DNA of 64,000 nt, from positions 1-64,000 of IMG/VR virus record IMGVR_UViG_3300013936_000019. The stretch is one strand, 5' to 3'. Of this stretch, positions 15,811-33,431 are shown piece by piece. Below the pieces are notes generated by a model that was given only the letters and a program-made list of their open reading frames with translations, was not told the DNA's origin and did not search any database. The position numbers and the translations under genes are program-made. How positions within the stretch are numbered: position 1 is the stretch's first letter; the number at the start of each line of letters is the position of its first letter. Origin of the DNA: a virus. Taxonomy: Duplodnaviria > Caudoviricetes.

Positions 15811-16728
15811 CTATAGGTAGTCTGCATATTTTAACCAAAAATTACTTTTAACAACTTTTGTGTTAAATCTATATTCAACTTCTTCAATGTGTGCCGAATA
15901 AATATATTCTTTAGTAGTCATCCCCAATTCTTGTGACCTTTGTTTTATCATATGAATTTTGCCTGAATCAAAAATATTATTTGCAGATATAAATTTAATA
16001 ACGCCAACATACTTTAAGCTTCTGGCAATGCTGTTATAAATAACACGCCCACGAATAAAATCTGATGTATCTTCTCTAGTATTTGGATAATCTTTAATAA
16101 CATATCCCCTGTCCACAAGAGTCATTGTTTTTACTAAGCTTCCACTAACGCTATAATAAATATTTTCTCTGATACTTTCTCTTATGTAATTTAATAATCT
16201 ATCTGAAATTACAATTTCTCTTCCATTATGTAAAGTTATTTTATTCCCATTAACATCAATTGGCCTAAGATTAACAAAATCACAAAAATCTTTGCCCTTC
16301 ATTCCCTCAAATAATCCAAGCAATATAACTTGATCTCTTGGATTTGGTAGCTGTTCGCTCCATTTAACAACCTCTTCTCTAGAAACAACTTTTTTATTTA
16401 ATAATGCTTTGTTCAAGCACCCTTTCATTATATCAAGATCTATTAATAAAAAATGATTTTGATTATCTTTTACTAGATTTTGTTGCAGGCACCAATCTAC
16501 ATATAAAGATAAATGAGAATTAAGGACAGCCAACACTTCAAGAGACGAAACGTTTAAAGATTTATAGAAATCTATAATTTCATTCACTGTGAAGTTATAA
16601 ACATCTTTACCTAACTCATTCTCTGCCTTTTCTAGTTTATTAAATTGGCACTCAAGATAATTAACTGGCAATACAGCCTGATTACTCTTTTCTTCTATAT
16701 ACCTTGTTTTTAATTCTGAATTAAACAT
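15811..16728 (-). CDS. mrpR: MrpR/YopR-like master repressor (degenerate tyrosine-recombinase fold)
   Basis: MFNSELK..., KDVYNFT, LSLYVDW and LLGLFEG resemble SPbeta YopR as recalled; lacks the R-HxxR-Y catalytic set; third gene of a yopP-yopQ-yopR-like triad. Confidence 0.75.
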   Translation of the reverse strand: MFNSELKTRYIEEKSNQAVLPVNYLECQFNKLEKAENELGKDVYNFTVNEIIDFYKSLNVSSLEVLAVLNSHLSLYVDWCLQQNLVKDNQNHFLLIDLDIMKGCLNKALLNKKVVSREEVVKWSEQLPNPRDQVILLGLFEGMKGKDFCDFVNLRPIDVNGNKITLHNGREIVISDRLLNYIRESIRENIYYSVSGSLVKTMTLVDRGYVIKDYPNTREDTSDFIRGRVIYNSIARSLKYVGVIKFISANNIFDSGKIHMIKQRSQELGMTTKEYIYSAHIEEVEYRFNTKVVKSNFWLKYADYL

Positions 16729-17983
16729 CCGTCATCACGTCCTTAAATAATTTTTCTAAGTCATTAACCATGGCTTTTCTTGGGATTTTTGAAGAAAATC
16801 TTTTGTTGTCTAGATCATTTTCTCTTTGCGTCATTTTTTCTATTATACTGCCGAGATTGGAAAGATCTTCATGGTGACTAAATACATATATAATAATAGC
16901 AAGTTTTTTATATGAATATTTTTCGCTCATGTATTTTGTGTCGTATTCGGTTAGCACATTGAATTTTTCTATTAAATCTTTAGTAACAGAAAGTACCAAC
17001 ATATTTTCATTTTGAATTTTTTCTTTATTTCTAAAATAGAAATATCTAATTAATTCTGCCAGCTCTCCATAATTAATTATAGCTTTATTTCTATTAATAC
17101 ATCCTTTAATATTGCAACGAGGACTTTCATTTATTCTTTCAACAACAATATTTGCTGGATTATCCATGTTAAATGATTTGCTGTCCAGCTTTTTCATTTG
17201 AGTCTTTTGATCCTCCTGATATATAAATCTATTTACTTTATCATCGGAGAAGTTTATGATTCTTAATTCCATAGGATAATTAAATTCATTGTCATTATCA
17301 TAAGCTTTATAAGCGGCTATAATTCTATGAAATCCGTCACTGGCATCAAAATGTTTTAATTCATTTATAATAAGTTCATCTGTTTTATTATCATAATAAA
17401 AATCAGCACCATCTGCTAGATTCAATGTAATAGTATTTGGTATAAATGAATTTCTTTCAAACGAATTTTTAATAGAAGCAACTGCTGTTTGATTCAGTGA
17501 AATTTTATATATTTCCTTGTCTCCTCTTATAATCTTTGTAAGAACACGTTGTGCGTTTTCGTTATAGTTAATTAGCTGTGCCTCTCTTAATTTAATCAAC
17601 ATGGCAACATCAATCTTACCAACCCACTGATCCGCTGTAATTTGAATCATCTTAAATTTTAGTGGAAATTTTATTTTCTCTATCTCATATTTTGCTCTTG
17701 AATATTCTTTTATTTCCAGCTCTGTATAATAATCAGATAAGTTTAATTTAATATTGACAACATCAATTATAGAATCCAGCAAACAGAATAATATAAATTC
17801 ATTTGCCTCGCTCATGGACGACCTCATACAAATGTAATCAGATGCCATTCCTCTTGGAATGTTATATTTTTCTTTTGCGTGGTCATATATTTTACCACAC
17901 ATATTTGAGTCTAATGCTAGACTGATACATATTTTTTCTAATTTATTTTCTAATTCTTCTTTACTTCCTTTCAAACAACTCAC
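16721..17983 (-). CDS. YopQ/SroE-like protein with ParB/DndB-type DGxHR domain
   Basis: NENAQR, PNTITLN and SDGFHR motifs; sits between yopP- and yopR-like genes. Confidence 0.7.
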   Translation of the reverse strand: MSCLKGSKEELENKLEKICISLALDSNMCGKIYDHAKEKYNIPRGMASDYICMRSSMSEANEFILFCLLDSIIDVVNIKLNLSDYYTELEIKEYSRAKYEIEKIKFPLKFKMIQITADQWVGKIDVAMLIKLREAQLINYNENAQRVLTKIIRGDKEIYKISLNQTAVASIKNSFERNSFIPNTITLNLADGADFYYDNKTDELIINELKHFDASDGFHRIIAAYKAYDNDNEFNYPMELRIINFSDDKVNRFIYQEDQKTQMKKLDSKSFNMDNPANIVVERINESPRCNIKGCINRNKAIINYGELAELIRYFYFRNKEKIQNENMLVLSVTKDLIEKFNVLTEYDTKYMSEKYSYKKLAIIIYVFSHHEDLSNLGSIIEKMTQRENDLDNKRFSSKIPRKAMVNDLEKLFKDVMTDV

Positions 17984-18078
17984 CTCAAATTATATAATTT
18001 AGTAAAGTTTAAGAAATGCCCCAAGACTTTCCATAAAAAGATTTTTTACCTAATGTTTACCAACAGGCTCCTTTAACA

Positions 18079-18107
18079 ATTATAATCGTTAGATATCTTA
18101 TAGTCAA
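18079..18107 (-). promoter_or_regulatory. near-consensus sigma-A promoter for yopQ-mrpR
   Basis: TTGACT-17 bp-TATAAT. Confidence 0.75.
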
Positions 18108-18111
18108 TAAA

Positions 18112-18146
18112 TAAAAAAGAATGAGCAAATTAACGCTCACTCTTTT
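18112..18146. terminator. intrinsic terminator after the recombinase gene
   Basis: Imperfect stem AAAAGAATGAGC...GCTCACTCTTTT with flanking A tract. Confidence 0.55.
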
Positions 18147-19128
18147 AGAATAAAATATCATCCATTGCAGTAGCTGCTTTTTTCTTTCTTTCTTCAGAAA
18201 TCTGTGCGTATCTTCTTGTGTTGGCAATGTTACTATGACCAAGAATATCTGCTGTAAGATAAATATCTCCAGTTTTATTGTACACATTTGTTGCACATGT
18301 ACTACGAAGCTTGTGTGGTGTAATATGTTTATCAATGTTCTGTGTATACTTTTTAATTAAATTTTCAATTCCAAAAATAGTAATTCTAGTATGCCTATTA
18401 GAAATGAACAAAGCAGAAGTATTTTCACATTCATCTCCAAGAATATATTTTCTATTCTCAATCCAATCTAATAAGACAGACTTTAAATCATCACTAAACA
18501 TGATTGTTCTAGTTTTGTTACCTTTTTCTACAATTGTTATTTCTTTTGTATCAAAATTAATATCTTCAAGATTAATTTCAGATAATGAAGTTGCTCTAAG
18601 ACCTAAAGACAATCCAAGCATAACAATGGCATAATCTCTTTTTCTCCACTTTTGCTGAATTAATTTTGCACGTTCAGAACCGCATCCGTTAAAAATATTT
18701 TTCTTAATGATACTGATTTCTTTTTTTGTTAAACTTGTAATCGTGTGTTCTTCTTTTTCTCTTGGAGCAGTGACTCGTAAACAAGGATTATTTGAAATAT
18801 ATTCATCATCTTCTAAAAATTTAAAGAATGTTTTGATACCATATAACCTACATCTTTTAATGCTTGTTTTGCCATTTAACCCAGCCAAATAATAGTCAAT
18901 GTCACTTTTCTTGATGTTATTAAAACATGAAACATTTGATGTATCTAAATTTAGTTCATCACGAATAAATTCAATAAAATCCAAAATATAATTGATATAA
19001 GTATCTTTAGTTGTGTAACTCTTATCATCTAAAGTATAATAATATTTTTTAATATACGTTGGCTGAGAAGCAATTTTAGCTTCAATTTTTCTTAACTTCT
19101 TTTCTTCGTTTTCTTTTCTGCCCTTCAT
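18145..19128 (-). CDS. XerC/D-like tyrosine recombinase (YopP/SroD-like)
   Basis: GLR, KG, HKLR, LGH and TRRY catalytic residues all present. Confidence 0.85.
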   Translation of the reverse strand: MKGRKENEEKKLRKIEAKIASQPTYIKKYYYTLDDKSYTTKDTYINYILDFIEFIRDELNLDTSNVSCFNNIKKSDIDYYLAGLNGKTSIKRCRLYGIKTFFKFLEDDEYISNNPCLRVTAPREKEEHTITSLTKKEISIIKKNIFNGCGSERAKLIQQKWRKRDYAIVMLGLSLGLRATSLSEINLEDINFDTKEITIVEKGNKTRTIMFSDDLKSVLLDWIENRKYILGDECENTSALFISNRHTRITIFGIENLIKKYTQNIDKHITPHKLRSTCATNVYNKTGDIYLTADILGHSNIANTRRYAQISEERKKKAATAMDDILF

Positions 19129-23458: not shown

Positions 23459-24028
23459 TTAAATAACTTTAATGTACTGCTTGGTATCTTTCTTATCCCA
23501 AACAAACCAACTATAACTTGTTGCATCCGTCCCCTTACCTGTAAAGCTTGGACGTTTACTTAAAGTAAACAGCCTGCTCAATGGATTCTCTTGCCAGAAT
23601 TTATACCTGGACTTGCTTTCTAGAAACGCCGTCCTAAGCAAGAAAATCAGAATACCATCATCACTCAATAGCTCAAGTGATTTATTCACAAACTCTAGTG
23701 CTTCACTATACGGCGGATTTCCAATGATTACATCATATTTATCATTGAACTTTGTTTCTAAAAAATCTCCAATCAATACTTTGCCAGCACATTGTTTCAG
23801 ATTATCAACCTCCTCCTCTCTAATTTCCATCGCTGTAATTTTCTTGTTTGGATAGTGCTCCTTGAACACTTGAACAATGTTACCATTGCCAGCACTTGGT
23901 TCAAGTACATTATCACCATATTCAGACAAGTCCAAGTTGTTTAACACATTTTCTACAACATCAACTGGCGTTGCATAGAAGTCGTGCGGTTTTCTCACGG
24001 TTCCTCTATTTGTAGCACTCATAATCAT
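23459..24028 (-). CDS. DNA N6-adenine methyltransferase (orphan, small)
   Basis: DFYATP, VLEPSAGNG (SAM binding), GDFL, and IGNPPY catalytic motif. Confidence 0.88.
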   Translation of the reverse strand: MIMSATNRGTVRKPHDFYATPVDVVENVLNNLDLSEYGDNVLEPSAGNGNIVQVFKEHYPNKKITAMEIREEEVDNLKQCAGKVLIGDFLETKFNDKYDVIIGNPPYSEALEFVNKSLELLSDDGILIFLLRTAFLESKSRYKFWQENPLSRLFTLSKRPSFTGKGTDATSYSWFVWDKKDTKQYIKVI

Positions 24029-24831: not shown

Positions 24832-25542
24832 TTAATGTGCATAAACGGCGATTCTGTCGCCATTCTTAGCCTTTAAGCATCTCTTACATCTACTGCAAAC
24901 CATGCCAGTCTCATGTCCTTTAGTATCAACAGCAGGACAGTGAGGAAGTTTTGCAACGTCCTCTTCTGTTCCATCGTCATAAATAAATTCCGGTAAGTGA
25001 TATGGGTTGTCATAGTTCTTGTGCCAAATTGACATGTTTACTACAAGATTACTCGGAAACTCATGGTTGTCCATCAAATATTTTTCTACCCATGTAAATC
25101 TCTTTGTATAGGTATAAAACTTTACATCCGGATTATTCTTTGCAAGTCTTACCATATGAAGTAAGTAATTGTAAGATGGTAGTTCACCCATAGAATGAAA
25201 TCTCATAGCTCCTACAATATTTCTATCAATGAATTTCTGAATTTCGTCAAAGAACACATCAATTTCCTGTGTTGCTAAGATTGTATTGTCATTCCACGAT
25301 TTCATGTTGCTGTTTCTAAACAACTGCGCTCTAATAGCATAGCAATCATGTTTGCATCCATCACAACATCCCTTGCAAGTTCCTGCAATGTTTGTCAACT
25401 GTTGCCCATTCTTCAATGTTAACGGTTCGTCTCCTGCTAACAAATTAACTGTGTAAATTCCTTTACCTAGCTTTCTGTTTCCGTCCTGAATGTGAACATG
25501 AGTATTCTCACTCAGGTAGCTCTCGAATTTGATCTTTTTCAT
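24832..25542 (-). CDS. phage Gp88-like protein (Cys-rich, radical-SAM-related fold)
   Basis: GNRKLG, TCKGCCDGCKHDCYA, RFHSMGE, FYTYTK, PSNLVVNMS and CSRCKRC...AH. Confidence 0.7.
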   Translation of the reverse strand: MKKIKFESYLSENTHVHIQDGNRKLGKGIYTVNLLAGDEPLTLKNGQQLTNIAGTCKGCCDGCKHDCYAIRAQLFRNSNMKSWNDNTILATQEIDVFFDEIQKFIDRNIVGAMRFHSMGELPSYNYLLHMVRLAKNNPDVKFYTYTKRFTWVEKYLMDNHEFPSNLVVNMSIWHKNYDNPYHLPEFIYDDGTEEDVAKLPHCPAVDTKGHETGMVCSRCKRCLKAKNGDRIAVYAH

Positions 25543-25555
25543 TTTCTCACTCTCC

Positions 25556-28500
25556 TTATCTCATTTCCTTCAAGCTATTAATAATGTCATCAACGTTCTC
25601 AATTTCATCTCTATACTCTTCAAGATATTCTTTCACAACATTAACGTCTTTCACGTATATTTTATATCTTGTATCAATATCTTCAAAAACATCAAATATA
25701 GAACCCATAATCCCCCAGTTCTGAACGGATAAGTTGTCCCTGTCGAGAACATACAGTTCGTCATATTCTCCAGTTAAAACATATTGTTCATACCCTTTTT
25801 TGTCTGTATAAACCATTACAATTTCTAGCATATTGTTTCCTCCTTTATATACACATGCCATCCTTGCCATACACCTTAATGCATCTAACGAACCATTCAA
25901 CACTTTCGTTGAAATCATCGTTGTTATCAGAAATATACTCATAATCTTCCTTAGATGGACAATCCGGAACTCCCAACTGAATCCAGTCGTAGTACGCATT
26001 TTCATTATTCATATGAAGCATAATGTTGTGCATCTGTTTCAGAATCTCAATTCTTTCTTTTTTGTTTTGTTCTGTCATAATTTTTTCCTCAACAATCTTC
26101 AGGCACAATGCCGTAATCATCAGACAACTCCTTTAACATCTTATGTCCATCCATATAAGTAGTCTTTATCCAAGACGCTTCACCTTGGAATATCATGAAA
26201 TTTTTCTTGTCCACATACTCAAATCCGTCAAAATCTGAAGCAATGAAGTTAATCATATCTCCATGCATGTTCTTTAAATCCTTTAGAAACTTAACTTTCT
26301 CACTGTCATAATTGATAATAGTGATAGTTTCGTGGAATTCGTCATAATAGACATCAACACTTTCCATGTCATGTTTCCAATAACTACAAATAAGAATTAA
26401 ACCTTCCATTAGATTTCAACCTCTCTTCTAACGGCATTTACAAAGCCGTTCAATGTTCTGTCGCTTCTTCTAAAGCAGTCCACCAAATCATTTGTTGTGA
26501 GATATTTTGGCAGAGCATAATACTCCGCCGGATAAATCACTGCAATGTACTTCATCATTCCTCTTGATTCAATCCAATCATTCTCAGAATCAGCATAGAA
26601 CATATTTATATATGTCCTATAACTGTCTAACCCTGTTTCACAATAGTTGAAACCGTAATTCCAGCCACGCTCCTTGAACTGTTTATTCAGCTCCTTAACT
26701 AAAACTTTACTAACTTGTGCTTTCATCTTTATCACTCATCCTTTCTTAGAACCACTCATTCTCAAGTGCGTCTTTATAGTACTGCTTTCTTGCCTTTGCA
26801 TAATAAACTAACTGTTTTTCGTCCAGTTCTGAAAGCTTCTCTTTCCCAAAGCATTGTAAAACGTCCCAATCTCCGTCATAATTGATTCCATATTCATGGT
26901 TACACATTTCATAGTAATAAGCCCCAACTGCAAATTCTTCATCTTGCATAAGTTTGTCCAGCTCCTCGTCTGAGTTGTCGTTAAACCAAGCTCTAATTTT
27001 TGGCGCATCTGTTCTTAAATAGAACCCGCCTGCTCCCAAATTATAAATCTTATCTGTGTCGTTCTCAGTGAGTCCCCATTCATTCATTATTTCTTTAAAT
27101 TGTTCGTTGCTAAAAGCGTACTTAACAGGGAGAGCATTATACGCTTCCTGTCTTTGTTTCACAAATTCTTGATAATTCATATTATTCCTCCTCTATAATT
27201 TTAAACAGTTTCTATGATTCTTTTTGCAAGTGTAATAAACTCCTTGTTAGACTTGCAACTAAATTGTTCTTTAATGTTTTGTTTCCAAGTTGGACGGCAA
27301 TATGTCCTAGAAACATCCTTGATCCATTTCTCATATGCTCCGTCCTTGTACTTCAAATCATTGATATAGTCCATACAAGCGTTGTAATAAGCTTCCGTGC
27401 TACAAGCTCCCGCATTATCATAACTAAAACATCTCTTATAGAGAAGATTGTAAAAATCACCCTCTCCATAATGTGCGTTATAAACTTGATTGTAAATTGT
27501 TATAGGCACATTCGCTTTGATGTACCTTTCTGTTGATACTGCCATTTTATTATTCCTCCTAAATTATGAACAAGATTTTTCCTGTTCTTATATTTGATAC
27601 GGCAAGCCATCTAGACTCCTTATAAAAGCCTAGACAACCTATTACCCGTCCTCGCACCTTCTTCATAGTATTATCATTTACAAATATGAAATAGTTCTTC
27701 ACGCTATCACCTCTATAAACAGTATACTATAAAATTGGTGCTTTATGCTACCTACTTAATGCTTCGTACTGCTTCCATGATTCTGTTCTGTCATGCAATG
27801 GTAGAATTTCAAAACCACCGCACAACTCACAGAACCTACTATCACAACTTCCTATATATGAACCTCCAGCCATATATCCTAGATGTCCTTCAGGAATTTC
27901 TTCCACCGGTTCGAAAATATAATGTTTTTCGCCCCATAACATTCTCGGAACAAAGACAACGGCGTTGTCCTCTGCTTCCTTGATGTCCTCTATAACTTCG
28001 CCGTCCTCTAAGAAATAGCAGACAACATCATCATAGCGGTCGCTGATTCCGTTGTTAGAGCATCCTTTAAATGCGGATGCCTTGAAAATATATGCATTCA
28101 GTTTCTTCATGATTTCCTCCTATTTTTCAAACTCTGTTTCCTTGCCGTCCTCATAGATAACGGAATGTTCTTTGCGATTGAAGATTTCAAGTGCAGACGC
28201 CATGTCCCACGTGTATTCTTCCACATCGCAACCGTCCTCATCACGGTACTTGACACAGTAACGGCGCTTGTTGTCGCAGTTATAGAAACGCTCCGCAATG
28301 TCCTCTAATGTGTCCAAGAACCATTGTTCGGTAGCTTCTTCTACATAGAAGAAATTTACGGATGGACGACATCCAACCTGTTTACGTTTACCGTTTTCCA
28401 TAGCATAAGCATAGCGAGCGTTTGTAAACACTTCATAGGCTCTATAACAGTCGTCCCCTTTAGTAACTTCGTTGCCAAAGCTCCAGTAGGACTTTACAGG

Positions 28501-29116
28501 CTTTTCAATAAATCCATGCTTCGCCCACAAATTGCCAAGAAAGTGTTTCCCCTCTCCTGTGCATTTTGTAAATTCAACAACGAGGTTTTCCCCGTTGGCA
28601 TTTGGCTCTGTAAATGTAATGAGTCCAGAATGATCCGTCCTCATGTCGATTTTATATTCTCTCATTTTTTATATTCTCCTTTCATAAACTTTTCGACAGC
28701 TTCCTCATCTGAGTCAGCATAAAGACGGCACACATAGTTGCCGTCATTCAGCACGAGGTACACACCGTCCCCGTAAAATGTTGCCTTCTCAAGGCTGTAA
28801 AAACATTTTCTAGCGAGTTTCATACATATCACTCTCCTCTCTTGTCATAAACCACGGGTCGCTATCCAGTAACCCGTAAAGCTCCTCAGCTGTTACATCG
28901 AGGAGCGCTTCTAGTCTTTCCCAAGTCATGTTATCACCTCCTATGCCCATACTTGAGCAGAATGCGGACTATGACTGCATCAATCGCAATCAGTCCGCAC
29001 ATGATTGCGAGCGTTTCAGCGTCAGTGTCTCCCTTGACGCCGGTTACCATCATGGCAACTAAGAACGCCATAATGCATAAGCCCTTCTCTATTGAAGGGC
29101 GCAGATGGCGTCTCAT
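25556..29116 (-). other. cluster of early hypothetical genes (25556-25831, 25845-26078, 26089-26409, 26409-26735, 26746-27180, 27201-27545, 27748-28110, 28120-28665, small ORFs to 29116)
   Basis: Packed same-strand ORFs with strong RBSs. Confidence 0.65.
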
Positions 29117-29415
29117 TTTTTCACCTCTTGAAGCTGAGACAGACCCGTCCCAAGCTTTTCGGCGTTGACAACATACACCTCATGAGTGCATGTGTCTTCC
29201 ATTGTATAGACTACAATGGTTTCTCCGACGGTAAACCCGTCACCGTCGAACGTGTACAGAGAACCGGACTTCTCAATAGTCACGGCGTCCCCGTTCACTG
29301 CATACACCGGTGCAGTGAAGCTATCAAACTGTGCAGACGGCTTGCATGCGTCCTCTGCTTTTACGACGCAACCAGTCGCAATGATGGCAACGGTCGCCAA
29401 AAATTCTTTTTTCAT
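29113..29415 (-). CDS. putative lipoprotein or secreted protein
   Basis: ATG 29415 behind GGAG; MKKEFLATVAIIATGC lipobox-like signal. Confidence 0.5.
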   Translation of the reverse strand: MKKEFLATVAIIATGCVVKAEDACKPSAQFDSFTAPVYAVNGDAVTIEKSGSLYTFDGDGFTVGETIVVYTMEDTCTHEVYVVNAEKLGTGLSQLQEVKK

Positions 29416-29534
29416 GCTTCCTTCTCCTTTCTCTGGCGTGCACGGATTCTTGCCTTTGCACGCTCCATTTCTTCTTCCTGCTGTCGCAGGAATGACTTGA
29501 GGTCTTCCAGAGAACGGGCTTTCTGCCCATTCAA

Positions 29535-29589
29535 TCTGCACTCTGCCTTTTACATACGGACTTGTGACCGTCAATGGTGGCATTACAGA
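29535..29589 (-). ncRNA. twister self-cleaving ribozyme (type P1)
   Basis: UCUG-UAA-UGCC-AC-CAUUG-ACG-GUCACAAGUC-CGU-AUGUAAAA-GGCA-GAGUG-CAGA. P1, P2 and P4 stems, conserved UAA and GAG, and pseudoknots CAC/GUG and AC/GU are all satisfied. Confidence 0.85.
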
Positions 29590-29610
29590 AAGACGGCTTA
29601 CGCCGTCCTC
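29588..29610 (-). terminator. terminator-like hairpin after the first early gene
   Basis: GGACGGC-GTAA-GCCGTCT with a short U tract, abutting the ribozyme. Confidence 0.5.
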
Positions 29611-29614
29611 AATC

Positions 29615-30511
29615 TTAGCAGAAGTATTCGACGAACAGTCCTGCTTTCTTGGCGTTATTGTACGCCTTTACATAGTCCGCCTTTTTAGCGCCGGACTTAG
29701 GCATTTCAGCCCCGACAGTCTCAAGGACTGCCTTGTATTCCGCCTTAGTGGCTGTAACAGAGTCAAGACGACGGACAGTCTTGAAGTCGTCGAACTCTTC
29801 AATCATGATAACTTCAACGCCCTTCAGCTCGGATTCTACAATCTTCCCGCTGATGATGGACTTGTCAACGGCAAGCTGAAGCAGAAGGGCAAGCACTAAG
29901 TCAGCAAACTGTCCCACGACCATATTGTCGACAAGGCACTTGTGCCAGTCCCTTGTCTTGGCAAGACGGCTTCCGACATTGTCGGAAAGATACTTCACGA
30001 CACTGTCATCACAAGTCATGCCGTAACTTGTGAAGTAGTCGGCAAGGGCGGACTTCCAGCCGTCTTCATTGACTTGACGGTTGACATAAGCCCCATAAAG
30101 ACGGCTTGCAATGTCGTCAAGGGTAGGCTGAACCGCCATTTTTTCAGCCTTATTCCAAGCGTGCAAACACGCCTGTGCCTTTGCACGGTCTGCCTTGCAA
30201 AGGGCATAACGTGCCTTCTCAGACTCGGAAAGTTCTTCCTTGCCCTCCAATTCTGCCATTTCGGCGCTCAAGTACGCAATGTTATTGCGGTACTTAGAGT
30301 CCACGTCATAGACGTGCGCCTTGAAGGCATAACAGGCACTCATGTCTTCCACGAATGCCTTGGAAGCTACAAGCTTCACTTTCTTTGGGGCATACTGAAT
30401 GCCCTTGACATATTGAACCTTATTCTTAAGGTTCTCTCTTTCGACTCTAATAGCAGAGTCAATTACAGCGCCCATTTCCGGCGCTTTTACAACGGATTCA
30501 TTTTTTTTCAT
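29615..30511 (-). CDS. first gene of the leftward early operon, hypothetical
   Basis: 298 aa, AAGGAG RBS, visibly GC-richer codons than the rest of the genome. Confidence 0.8.
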   Translation of the reverse strand: MKKNESVVKAPEMGAVIDSAIRVERENLKNKVQYVKGIQYAPKKVKLVASKAFVEDMSACYAFKAHVYDVDSKYRNNIAYLSAEMAELEGKEELSESEKARYALCKADRAKAQACLHAWNKAEKMAVQPTLDDIASRLYGAYVNRQVNEDGWKSALADYFTSYGMTCDDSVVKYLSDNVGSRLAKTRDWHKCLVDNMVVGQFADLVLALLLQLAVDKSIISGKIVESELKGVEVIMIEEFDDFKTVRRLDSVTATKAEYKAVLETVGAEMPKSGAKKADYVKAYNNAKKAGLFVEYFC

Positions 30512-30519
30512 AATATCAT

Positions 30520-31030
30520 TCTCCTTTTACGGGCGTTACGCCCTTATTTTTTAGTGTTCTTTCACACCGTTAACCGTTCAAATTGTTTCACGTGAAACAA
30601 TAATTTTAAACAGTTAACGCTATAAAAGCGTGACACTTTATGCACTTGGCGGGCGACTATAACAGGACTTCCACCTGCCTAGTTTTCCCGCTTGCATGGC
30701 TATGCCGTGCTGGTTCTGCCTGTCACTCAGAACTATACCATTTTAAGCCGTGATATATCGCTGTTCTGTTACCGCATCTATTACGATCCTGTGTACGTGC
30801 TTTTCAAGGGGGCACGATTGTACGGGCGGTTTTATCCCTTATTTTTAGGGCGTCAATGAACTCATAGCCCTAACTTTTTTAACGGTAGTCAAGCCGTGAC
30901 ACGTGTTACGTGTCAATTTTTTCACTAATATATGCTTTCAAAGAACAACCAGCGATACTGTCAGTAATAAACATTAAATATCGAAAGAACTGCGCTCCGG
31001 TGTTACCCTTTGGGCTGTTCACTTGGTACA
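30520..31030 (-). ncRNA. long structured 5' leader of the early operon with a boxA-like element
   Basis: No ORF; many GC-rich hairpins; TGTTCTTTGAAA at 30947-30936. Confidence 0.45.
30584..30599. promoter_or_regulatory. parS: parS site (Spo0J/ParB consensus)
   Basis: TGTTTCACGTGAAACA, an exact match to the chromosomal parS consensus, inside a 20-bp perfect palindrome (30582-30601) in intergenic DNA. Confidence 0.85.
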
Positions 31031-31035
31031 CTTAT

Positions 31036-31063
31036 ACTTTAACATATGTATAAATTTTGTCAA
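31036..31063 (-). promoter_or_regulatory. sigma-A promoter of the leftward early operon
   Basis: TTGACA-16 bp-TAAAGT with TG extended -10. Confidence 0.55.
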
Positions 31064-31329
31064 AAAAATAGTTATTTTTTGGACACTTTTGAACGATAGG
31101 GGGGTAGAAAAAACCGCATAAACAAGCCATTTTTCACGTTTTTACTAAGGCTACTTCATCCACACACTGACCAAAAAATCGTATCGACTAACTCATCGTT
31201 GCGTTACGTCACCTGAGCAAAAAACGAACAATCTGGTCACATAAAATCTGGTCATATAACCAGATCAACTTCCTCTTTAAAATCCAGACGAGACATGATA
31301 TAATGACATCACAAAAAAAGGAGGTTTAC

Positions 31330-33431
31330 ATGAAACTAAATTCACACGGTACCAACGCAACAATTCAGGCTCATATCCTGCCGGAGAATGAAATGCGTCT
31401 CCTAGGCTTTACGGATCACGTTCCAGATAAATGGTATTACTGCAAATGTCTGCCAGATGAAACAACATTCAATGTAACAATTCCAAAGGACGGCTCAGAC
31501 ATAAGTATAGAAGTTATAGACGACGACTTTTGTCAACCTTATGACTATCAGACTATTCTAAGAGACAGTCCCCGCGACGAGTTTGCACTTAAAATAAAAG
31601 AACTAGTTGAGCAAGAGATGAAACGATTTCAAAAGGCAGGAGTACTATCTGGGCATAATTATGGAGACTATATTTAAAAGGAGATAAAACAGATGATTGA
31701 TACAGAAACAACAGTTAAAGAATTAGTATTTAAAAATGGTAAATGTTATGGGATTCTAGAAAACAATGGGAAAGAGATGGGCTTTATGCTCAACGGAGAA
31801 ATTTTTACACATATAAAAATAAACAATGAAGAATATAATTATTATCTTAATAGCCATCTGTGGAAGACACTTGCACAAAATAAAAGTGCAAACATTTCAC
31901 TAACAACACATGGCGACAAAAATGGTGTATTGTTTACAGTATACAATTTAAGTGAATGCTTTATGGAAGAAATGAAAAATAAAAATAATAATTAAAATTA
32001 GGAGCACAAAGAAAGGATACATATATGACAATCGAAAATGCAAAAATCAAATCAGTTAACCTATCTATGAAAGACCATGGATGTTTAACATTAGAAATGT
32101 GGTTACAAGGTAATGGATGGGATATTGTTTATGGAGGCTATGCAATAGGTAATGGATACCTTGGGGCAAAAAATTTCAATGGCAATGAAAAGAGTGCTGA
32201 ATATATTATGAGAATCATGGACACTGTTGGTGCTGAAAAATTCAATGATATGACAGGCAAGTATATTAGAGTTGAAACAAATGGATGGGGAGAGCCTATT
32301 GATAAAATTGGGAACATTGTAGAAGACAAATGGTTCAGTCAAAAAGAATTCTTTAAGGACAATGAAGCGAAGACCCGATGATGACGGGTCAAGCATGGGG
32401 TTAGACAATCCAGAAAAGGAGAATGTATGGACTTTAAAAACAGAAACTACTATCTAATTGGGCACTATGGAATGGATCAAGACGCTCCAAAAAGAATAAA
32501 AGAAACATTCAAATGTAAGATACGTTACAATCATTATGTATGTTGTGATAAATACTACACATGCTGCGTCTGCATTGACCAGAAATTGTCAAATGATTTA
32601 GAACAATATTTGCAGGAAAATAAAATATCATATGATAGAGTATATAGCAATGCAGATAAAACGGATATTAGTTGCAAAATATGGTTTGATTATAAAACAA
32701 AATTAAAAATAGAGGCACAACTGGAAAGAGCAAAATTTCTATTTGACTTAAAAGGTAAAAAGGAGAAAGAATATGAACAATAAATTAAACGAACTATTAG
32801 ATAAAATCGAATCTGGCGTCAAGCTAACAGAAAACGAAATTTCAAGTCTTGTATGGGAGCAGCCACATGTAGATGAAATTTATGGTGAAAATCACCGTTG
32901 GCAAAGAGAAGTGAAAACGATCATAGAAATTGGAGTCGTTTATGTTGCTATTGATTGGTTTGAGGGATTAACAGAGCTTAATGAAGACAATTATCCAAAT
33001 CAACCATATATTGTGGAGCCAAAGACATACACAAAAACAGTTGTAGTTACAGATTGGGTATCACAACCAATAGCCGGGGCTAGAAAGAACTGAGAGGAAT
33101 ACATATGGCTATATTAGAAGAAGGCATTGAAAAAATTAACATAAAAAACTTTCGGTTGGAAGGAACTGACTATTTGTTTAATTTAGAATGTATAATCAAC
33201 AACGGGATGGATAGGTATAAAATCACGTTCTATTCGCTCCATTTTTGTAGCATTGATGATAAAATAAGCATAGAAAAAAAGATCGAAACTGTAACTAATG
33301 CAACAGATGAAAAGCCAATTGTAAATTTTATAAAAAATATTTTAATACATATTGGGCGAAACAAATTTACAGTGGGCGCTATAAATACAGCTGCAGGAAA
33401 ACAATACTATGAAATAGAAAGAGCTAATTAA
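31330..33431 (+). other. six rightward hypothetical genes (31330-31677, 31693-31995, 32025-32381, 32427-32783, 32773-33093, 33105-33431)
   Basis: ORFs with RBSs, ending at a terminator-like hairpin at 33431-33457. Confidence 0.7.

Follow-up and report, generated by a model that had tools for sequence, protein, structure and literature searches.

A perfect parS without partition genes upstream of the early genes of a large phage, a possible loading site for host ParB

The sequence at 30584–30599 is a canonical nucleation site for ParB/Spo0J, where binding is predicted from its match to the 16-bp chromosomal parS consensus at 16 of 16 positions. Perfect, orphan and intergenic parS sites are a recurrent, non-random feature of phages, and the present site fits this pattern. 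The explanation that we favor, and to which we give about an even chance, is that it is an orphan ParB-nucleation site served by the ParB of the host, of the kind known from phi29.

The parS site and the genome that carries it

The window, which is the whole stretch of DNA analyzed, comprises the initial 64 kb of an IMG/VR record of 94,095 bp with a GC content of 33% and a CheckV completeness of 56%. The parS (assigned to neither strand) occupies the center of a 20-bp perfect palindrome (30582–30601, likewise unstranded), as the first-pass annotation of this DNA had reported. This palindrome is the longest perfect one of the whole record; three others reach 16 bp or more, and none of these contains GC. 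Within the window the parS is the sole match to the consensus with up to two mismatches, shuffled sequences giving 0.18 on average, and the same holds for the full 94,095 bp, in which the next-best matches have three mismatches. From base composition, the expectation of such a site in this genome is about 1 in 10,000. No enrichment of half-parS sequences was found around it. The earlier identification of the site as the Spo0J/ParB-binding consensus is thus borne out.

Leftward genes occupy the DNA up to about 30.5 kb, those beyond about 31.3 kb are rightward, and the parS is positioned inside the 790-bp gap between the two gene arms. It is upstream of the first leftward gene (29615–30511, minus strand), from whose start codon it is separated by 72 nt, in agreement with the distance of about 70 bp first given. 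Base 30599 is common to the parS and to a minus-strand copy of a 17-bp phage motif (30599–30615, 16/17 match), so the one-base overlap with a repeated motif described in the first-pass annotation is also correct.

Domain searches for ParB_N, HTH_ParB, AAA_31 and CbiA-type ParA found none in the 94 kb of this record, which is 56% complete. A self-encoded ParABS cassette of the P1 or N15 type, with parA/parB beside the parS, was not found, and the neighboring genes are ORFans. The parS is therefore an orphan in the available genome. The first-pass annotation had noticed the lack of parA and of a canonical parB in the window and had called for a scan of the full genome; the lack extends over all 94 kb, and the scan produced neither a further parS with up to two mismatches nor parAB. 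It is possible that a phage ParB is encoded in the missing part of the record.

Several genes relate this phage to SPbeta. The terminase is of a distant SPbeta type, and the RNA polymerase is a single-subunit enzyme of 935 aa of the YonO/RdRP type. The minus-strand segment at 15811–19128 resembles the SPbeta yopPQR block; it consists of an MrpR-like protein (15811–16728; PF22822, MrpR N-terminal core-binding domain, E 6e-17), an ORF of 420 aa without a Pfam match (16721–17983) and a tyrosine recombinase (18145–19128). Also in the leftward arm, on the minus strand, are a protein with an Eco57I/MTS-type DNA methyltransferase domain (23459–24028) and a GP88-family protein (24832–25542). Relatives were collected through the RNA polymerase, resulting in 29 records with 54–62% identity in this protein, seven of which are at least 90% complete; seven of the 29 are proviruses. 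Judging from the MrpR-like protein, the tyrosine recombinase and the provirus relatives, the phage is probably SPbeta-like, temperate and integrating. The SPbeta-type hallmarks would place its host presumably in the Bacillota, the phylum whose chromosomal parS has this consensus (PMC7022226). That the parS is of the type of the host we infer; the search of genome contigs with the RNA polymerase gave no match, and the Atlas taxa for host assignment read 'Viruses' only.

Conservation in related phages had been suggested as a check of the site, and here the outcome was negative, as none of the 29 relatives carries a parS even with one mismatch allowed. The early genes at 26.7–37 kb and the 17-bp motif are likewise missing from these records, and because the relatives are distant and lack both, their silence on the parS is only weakly informative. 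Two distant relatives encode ParB_N proteins (L151, G011:1238–1516; L152, G013:145397–145663), and no canonical parS was found in these two across 188–222 kb. A nucleotide search of cultured phages with 28000–33000 gave no match.

The site belongs to a GC-rich early module (27800–30900, minus strand) that also includes the gene P0001 and a twister-like element, and in which the GC content is 0.42–0.53 compared with about 0.30–0.35 around it. None of the 29 relatives defined by the polymerase has the genes of this 3-kb module. Owing to its high GC content, the module looks foreign and was probably acquired recently, and most likely the parS arrived with it instead of being shared by the lineage at large. 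P0001 itself, the first leftward early gene (29615–30511, minus strand), encodes an all-helical protein of 298 aa with no Pfam, PHROG or PDB match. Seventeen homologues with 40–73% identity were found, in Logan/ENA assemblies only, and a contig of 128.7 kb encodes an identical P0001; P0001 and the 17-member alignment found no relatives in viral contigs, JGI metagenome contigs, genome contigs or cultured phages. Its AlphaFold model (pLDDT 77) is entirely helical, without a PDB match and without sign of an HTH or ParB-like fold, and on the strength of this model P0001 was rejected as the parS binder. Between P0001 and the next ORF is a twister-P1-like match (29535–29589, minus strand; 45.6 bits, E 4e-8, under the gathering threshold).

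Perfect parS sites in viral contigs

The perfect 16-mer was found in at least 119 IMG/VR contigs (loci L030–L148), whose GC contents range from 0.27 to 0.72, and among the listed parS-bearing contigs at least 26 have two to five copies. Two composition-matched control palindromes were present in 2 and 17 IMG/VR contigs, i.e., 7–60 times more rarely than parS. Because of this enrichment, chance does not account for the majority of parS copies in viruses, and a chance origin of the present site is very unlikely. Furthermore, viral parS sites are preferentially intergenic, as is the present one: 45% of them are within an ORF of at least 100 aa, compared with 84% of random positions. In the 55 parS-bearing viral records searched, 13 of them at least 90% complete, ParB_N never scored above the cut-off, which indicates that parS, where phages carry it, is normally an orphan.

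The flanks of the present site and those of the other viral parS loci are identical at chance level only, and BLAST matches none of them. Shared ancestry with these loci was accordingly rejected.

The same survey bears on the explanation that the parS is a neutral passenger, brought in with the foreign module or matched by chance, with no selected role. Such a passenger would suit the probably recent acquisition of the GC-rich module and the lack of parS in the relatives, and the roughly 250,000 windows scanned would by themselves yield a few chance 16-mers. However, it does not explain why composition-matched palindromes are so much rarer in viral contigs, nor the intergenic regulatory position and the extended palindrome. 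Moreover, any cell containing ParB would bind a perfect site, whatever its origin. We therefore regard a passenger as unlikely, though still worth keeping in mind, since a perfect parS in a recently acquired module could persist without function.

The early leader and the control region

The parS is in a region with several putative regulatory elements. The 17-bp motif whose copy it touches has 25 matches with up to three mismatches (about 20 oriented copies), nearly all of them co-oriented with genes. The MrpR protein of SPbeta binds a repeated element, SPBRE, in promoter regions (PMC10516654). By analogy, the 17-bp motif is plausibly an MrpR/SPBRE-like operator or, alternatively, a promoter of the phage RNA polymerase, and this repeated motif, one copy of which abuts the parS, is probably bound by the MrpR-like protein. 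A sigma-A-type promoter-like site directed leftward (31036–31063, minus strand; 10/12 match with TG extension, by consensus matching only) is the presumed start of an early leader of about 520 nt, in which the parS would be transcribed. Another element, the operator-like cluster at 31230–31265 (unstranded), comprises two tandem 15-bp repeats and an inverted copy. It adjoins a rightward promoter-like site at 31276–31304, stands between the divergent promoter-like sites and may serve the lysis/lysogeny switch as its operator cluster. Given this position beside the rightward promoter, the switch of the phage itself seems to be elsewhere than at the parS.

In this setting the parS might be an operator for a phage protein, either a regulator encoded in the missing 44% or a partner of the MrpR-like protein, with host ParB uninvolved. 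In favor of this are its direct contact with a copy of the motif in the main regulatory region, the outer arms of the surrounding repeat, which carry part of the motif in inverted orientation, the incompleteness of the record and the ParB_N proteins of the two distant relatives. Yet neither a ParB-type nor an HTH_ParB protein was found in the available 94 kb, parS is missing from the two relatives that encode ParB_N, and a separate operator-like cluster already exists at 31230–31265. The parS is also single, whereas phage operators usually recur. Taken together, this makes an operator for a phage protein quite improbable.

A replication origin is likewise unsupported as an interpretation of the site. 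No DnaA-box cluster was found near the parS, and the GC skew changes its sign at the same place where transcription diverges, so the switch in skew is not independent evidence for an origin.

The parS is also part of a composite imperfect inverted repeat (30559–30628, minus strand) with 24-nt arms that are 79% complementary, a feature not mentioned in the first-pass annotation. In the sense (minus-strand) leader RNA, this repeat is predicted to form a hairpin of about 28 bp (about 70 nt) with the palindrome at its apex. One prediction for the repeat gave −36.3 kcal/mol with a z of −6.95. In a second one, which compared the strands at 30560–30627, the sense hairpin folds with −29 kcal/mol (z −6.8) and the plus strand with −14 kcal/mol, a gap due to the G-U pairs of the outer stem. 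This asymmetry in predicted stability suggests selection at the RNA level.

The hairpin may therefore have a role of its own as a processing site (e.g., for a double-strand-specific RNase), a stabilizer or a pause element, the identity with parS being incidental. This would be consistent with the strand-dependent fold, with the structured nature of the leader of about 520 nt as a whole (z −4.4) and with the twister-like ribozyme that follows the first gene of the same operon, on account of which RNA processing appears to be a theme here. On the other hand, a hairpin could take any sequence, and its exact parS apex is left unexplained; with only four perfect palindromes this long (at least 16 bp) in the genome, the chance that one of them would be a 16/16 parS is roughly 1 in 10,000, and perfect parS is strongly over-represented in phages generally. 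A purely RNA-level element with an accidental parS thus seems rather unlikely to us. Roles in RNA and in ParB binding are compatible, and an RNA role is a serious rival to ParB loading or an additional function.

Some further elements of the leader were observed. A weak plus-strand promoter-like site (30577–30604, 9/12) has the parS as its exact 16-bp spacer, and a terminator-like plus-strand hairpin with a T-run is found about 300 nt downstream of it (30897–30915); it is conceivable that an RNA of about 300 nt, antisense to the early leader, is made from this promoter-like site. A GC hairpin at 30531–30543, 8 nt upstream of the ribosome-binding site of P0001, has the form of an intrinsic terminator on the plus strand only, i.e., antisense to P0001. 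Two short repeats occur within the leader only, a 9-mer with copies at 30745 and 30891 and an 8-mer with copies at 30629 and 30895, the spans being 30629–30636, 30745–30753 and 30891–30902. The second copy of the 8-mer belongs to a 19-bp interrupted palindrome at 30897–30915.

Host ParB on phage DNA

For a phage without ParB or ParA, the expected binder of a parS is the chromosomal ParB (Spo0J type) of the host. Borrowing of host ParB is the most economical reading of the site, because it is canonical, orphan and very unlikely to be due to chance, and because phi29 provides a precedent. In this scheme, host ParB would load on the parS as a CTP clamp and from there spread across the region that controls the divergent early genes. 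The consequence might be the positioning or segregation of non-integrated phage DNA, as in a carrier state or in the capture of phage DNA by a daughter cell or spore as in phi29, and/or reduced activity of the early operon and of the motif site next to it. Either of these outcomes of ParB loading, the one for free phage DNA or the one for the early operon, is possible. Against host ParB stand the single site, the lack of parS in all 29 relatives and the unique surrounding genes; as neither the parS nor its surroundings are conserved, these comparisons give no sign that the phage keeps the site under selection.

The first-pass annotation had also proposed that host ParB is borrowed. That part receives support from the canonical orphan site, the enrichment and the phi29 precedent and is weakened by the relatives, none of which carries parS. 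Its more specific ideas, an episome, entry into spores and recruitment of SMC, are not supported: nothing that points to them in particular was seen, no Spo0A boxes were found, and the phage looks like an integrating one. The search for Spo0A boxes covered 30000–31800, where the early promoters are, and its negative result has little weight because about 0.9 matches are expected there by chance. A strategy specifically like the spore strategy of phi29 and a function as origin are both without support here.

Experimental precedent comes from the Bacillus phages phi29 and Nf. In phi29 there are five parS sites used by host Spo0J, and in both phages the use of parS by Spo0J is related to entrapment in the spore (PMC2731898). 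The likeness is that a parS of the host consensus is present on a phage without ParB, by which the partition protein of the host is exploited. However, phi29 is a virulent, protein-primed phage of 19 kb whose five sites are coupled to Spo0A boxes at the early promoters, while here a single parS is present in 94 kb of a large, SPbeta-like and probably temperate phage without 0A boxes.

The chromosomal parS sites, of which B. subtilis has 10 (PMC7022226), have the identical 16-bp consensus. Nucleation of ParB(Spo0J)-CTP, formation of a clamp, sliding and possibly loading of SMC would thus be expected on the phage site as well. The chromosomal sites, however, cluster around oriC beside parAB, whereas the viral site is single, is placed in the leader of early genes and forms the tip of an RNA hairpin. 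Another mobile element, SGI1, hijacks the ParABS of IncC plasmids through its own parS copies, and its stabilization has been demonstrated (PMC10954446). SGI1 resembles the present phage in that only the cis site is carried and ParB is supplied in trans by another replicon, although SGI1 borrows a plasmid system with plasmid-specific sites and the phage would borrow a chromosomal one.

With respect to the control of transcription, the likeness is to KorB and its OB operators, where a ParB-type site at a promoter or leader could let a sliding clamp regulate transcription. KorB is a self-encoded clamp of the ParB family that regulates transcription in IncP-1 plasmids, which have about 12 OB operators. 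Unlike these plasmids, the phage has a single site of the chromosomal consensus, and no gene of the ParB family was found in 94 kb. A combination of DNA and RNA functions can also be imagined, in which ParB clamps at the hairpin apex, beside the MrpR-type site, would couple the early operon or the positioning of the genome to the chromosome cycle or sporulation of the host, the palindrome in the transcript serving as the tip of a processing hairpin; in a variant of this, ParB in the spacer of 30577–30604 would control the antisense RNA of about 300 nt. Such a dual switch is a long shot.

To our knowledge, the use of the chromosome-partition machinery of the host by a phage has experimental support so far in the phi29 family only. 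If host ParB loads on the present site, this would be another independent phage case, in a large SPbeta-like phage of gut type. The excess of parS over the control palindromes, the nearly constant lack of a phage ParB and the intergenic preference together suggest that the strategy is widespread and under-described. By itself the present parS is a single unconserved site with a candidate function only, and what it adds is a possible link to early-gene control. Among the parS-bearing IMG/VR records, several are complete genomes of 15–16 kb, a size like that of phi29, with inverted terminal repeats and one to three parS (e.g., L093, L065 and L072).
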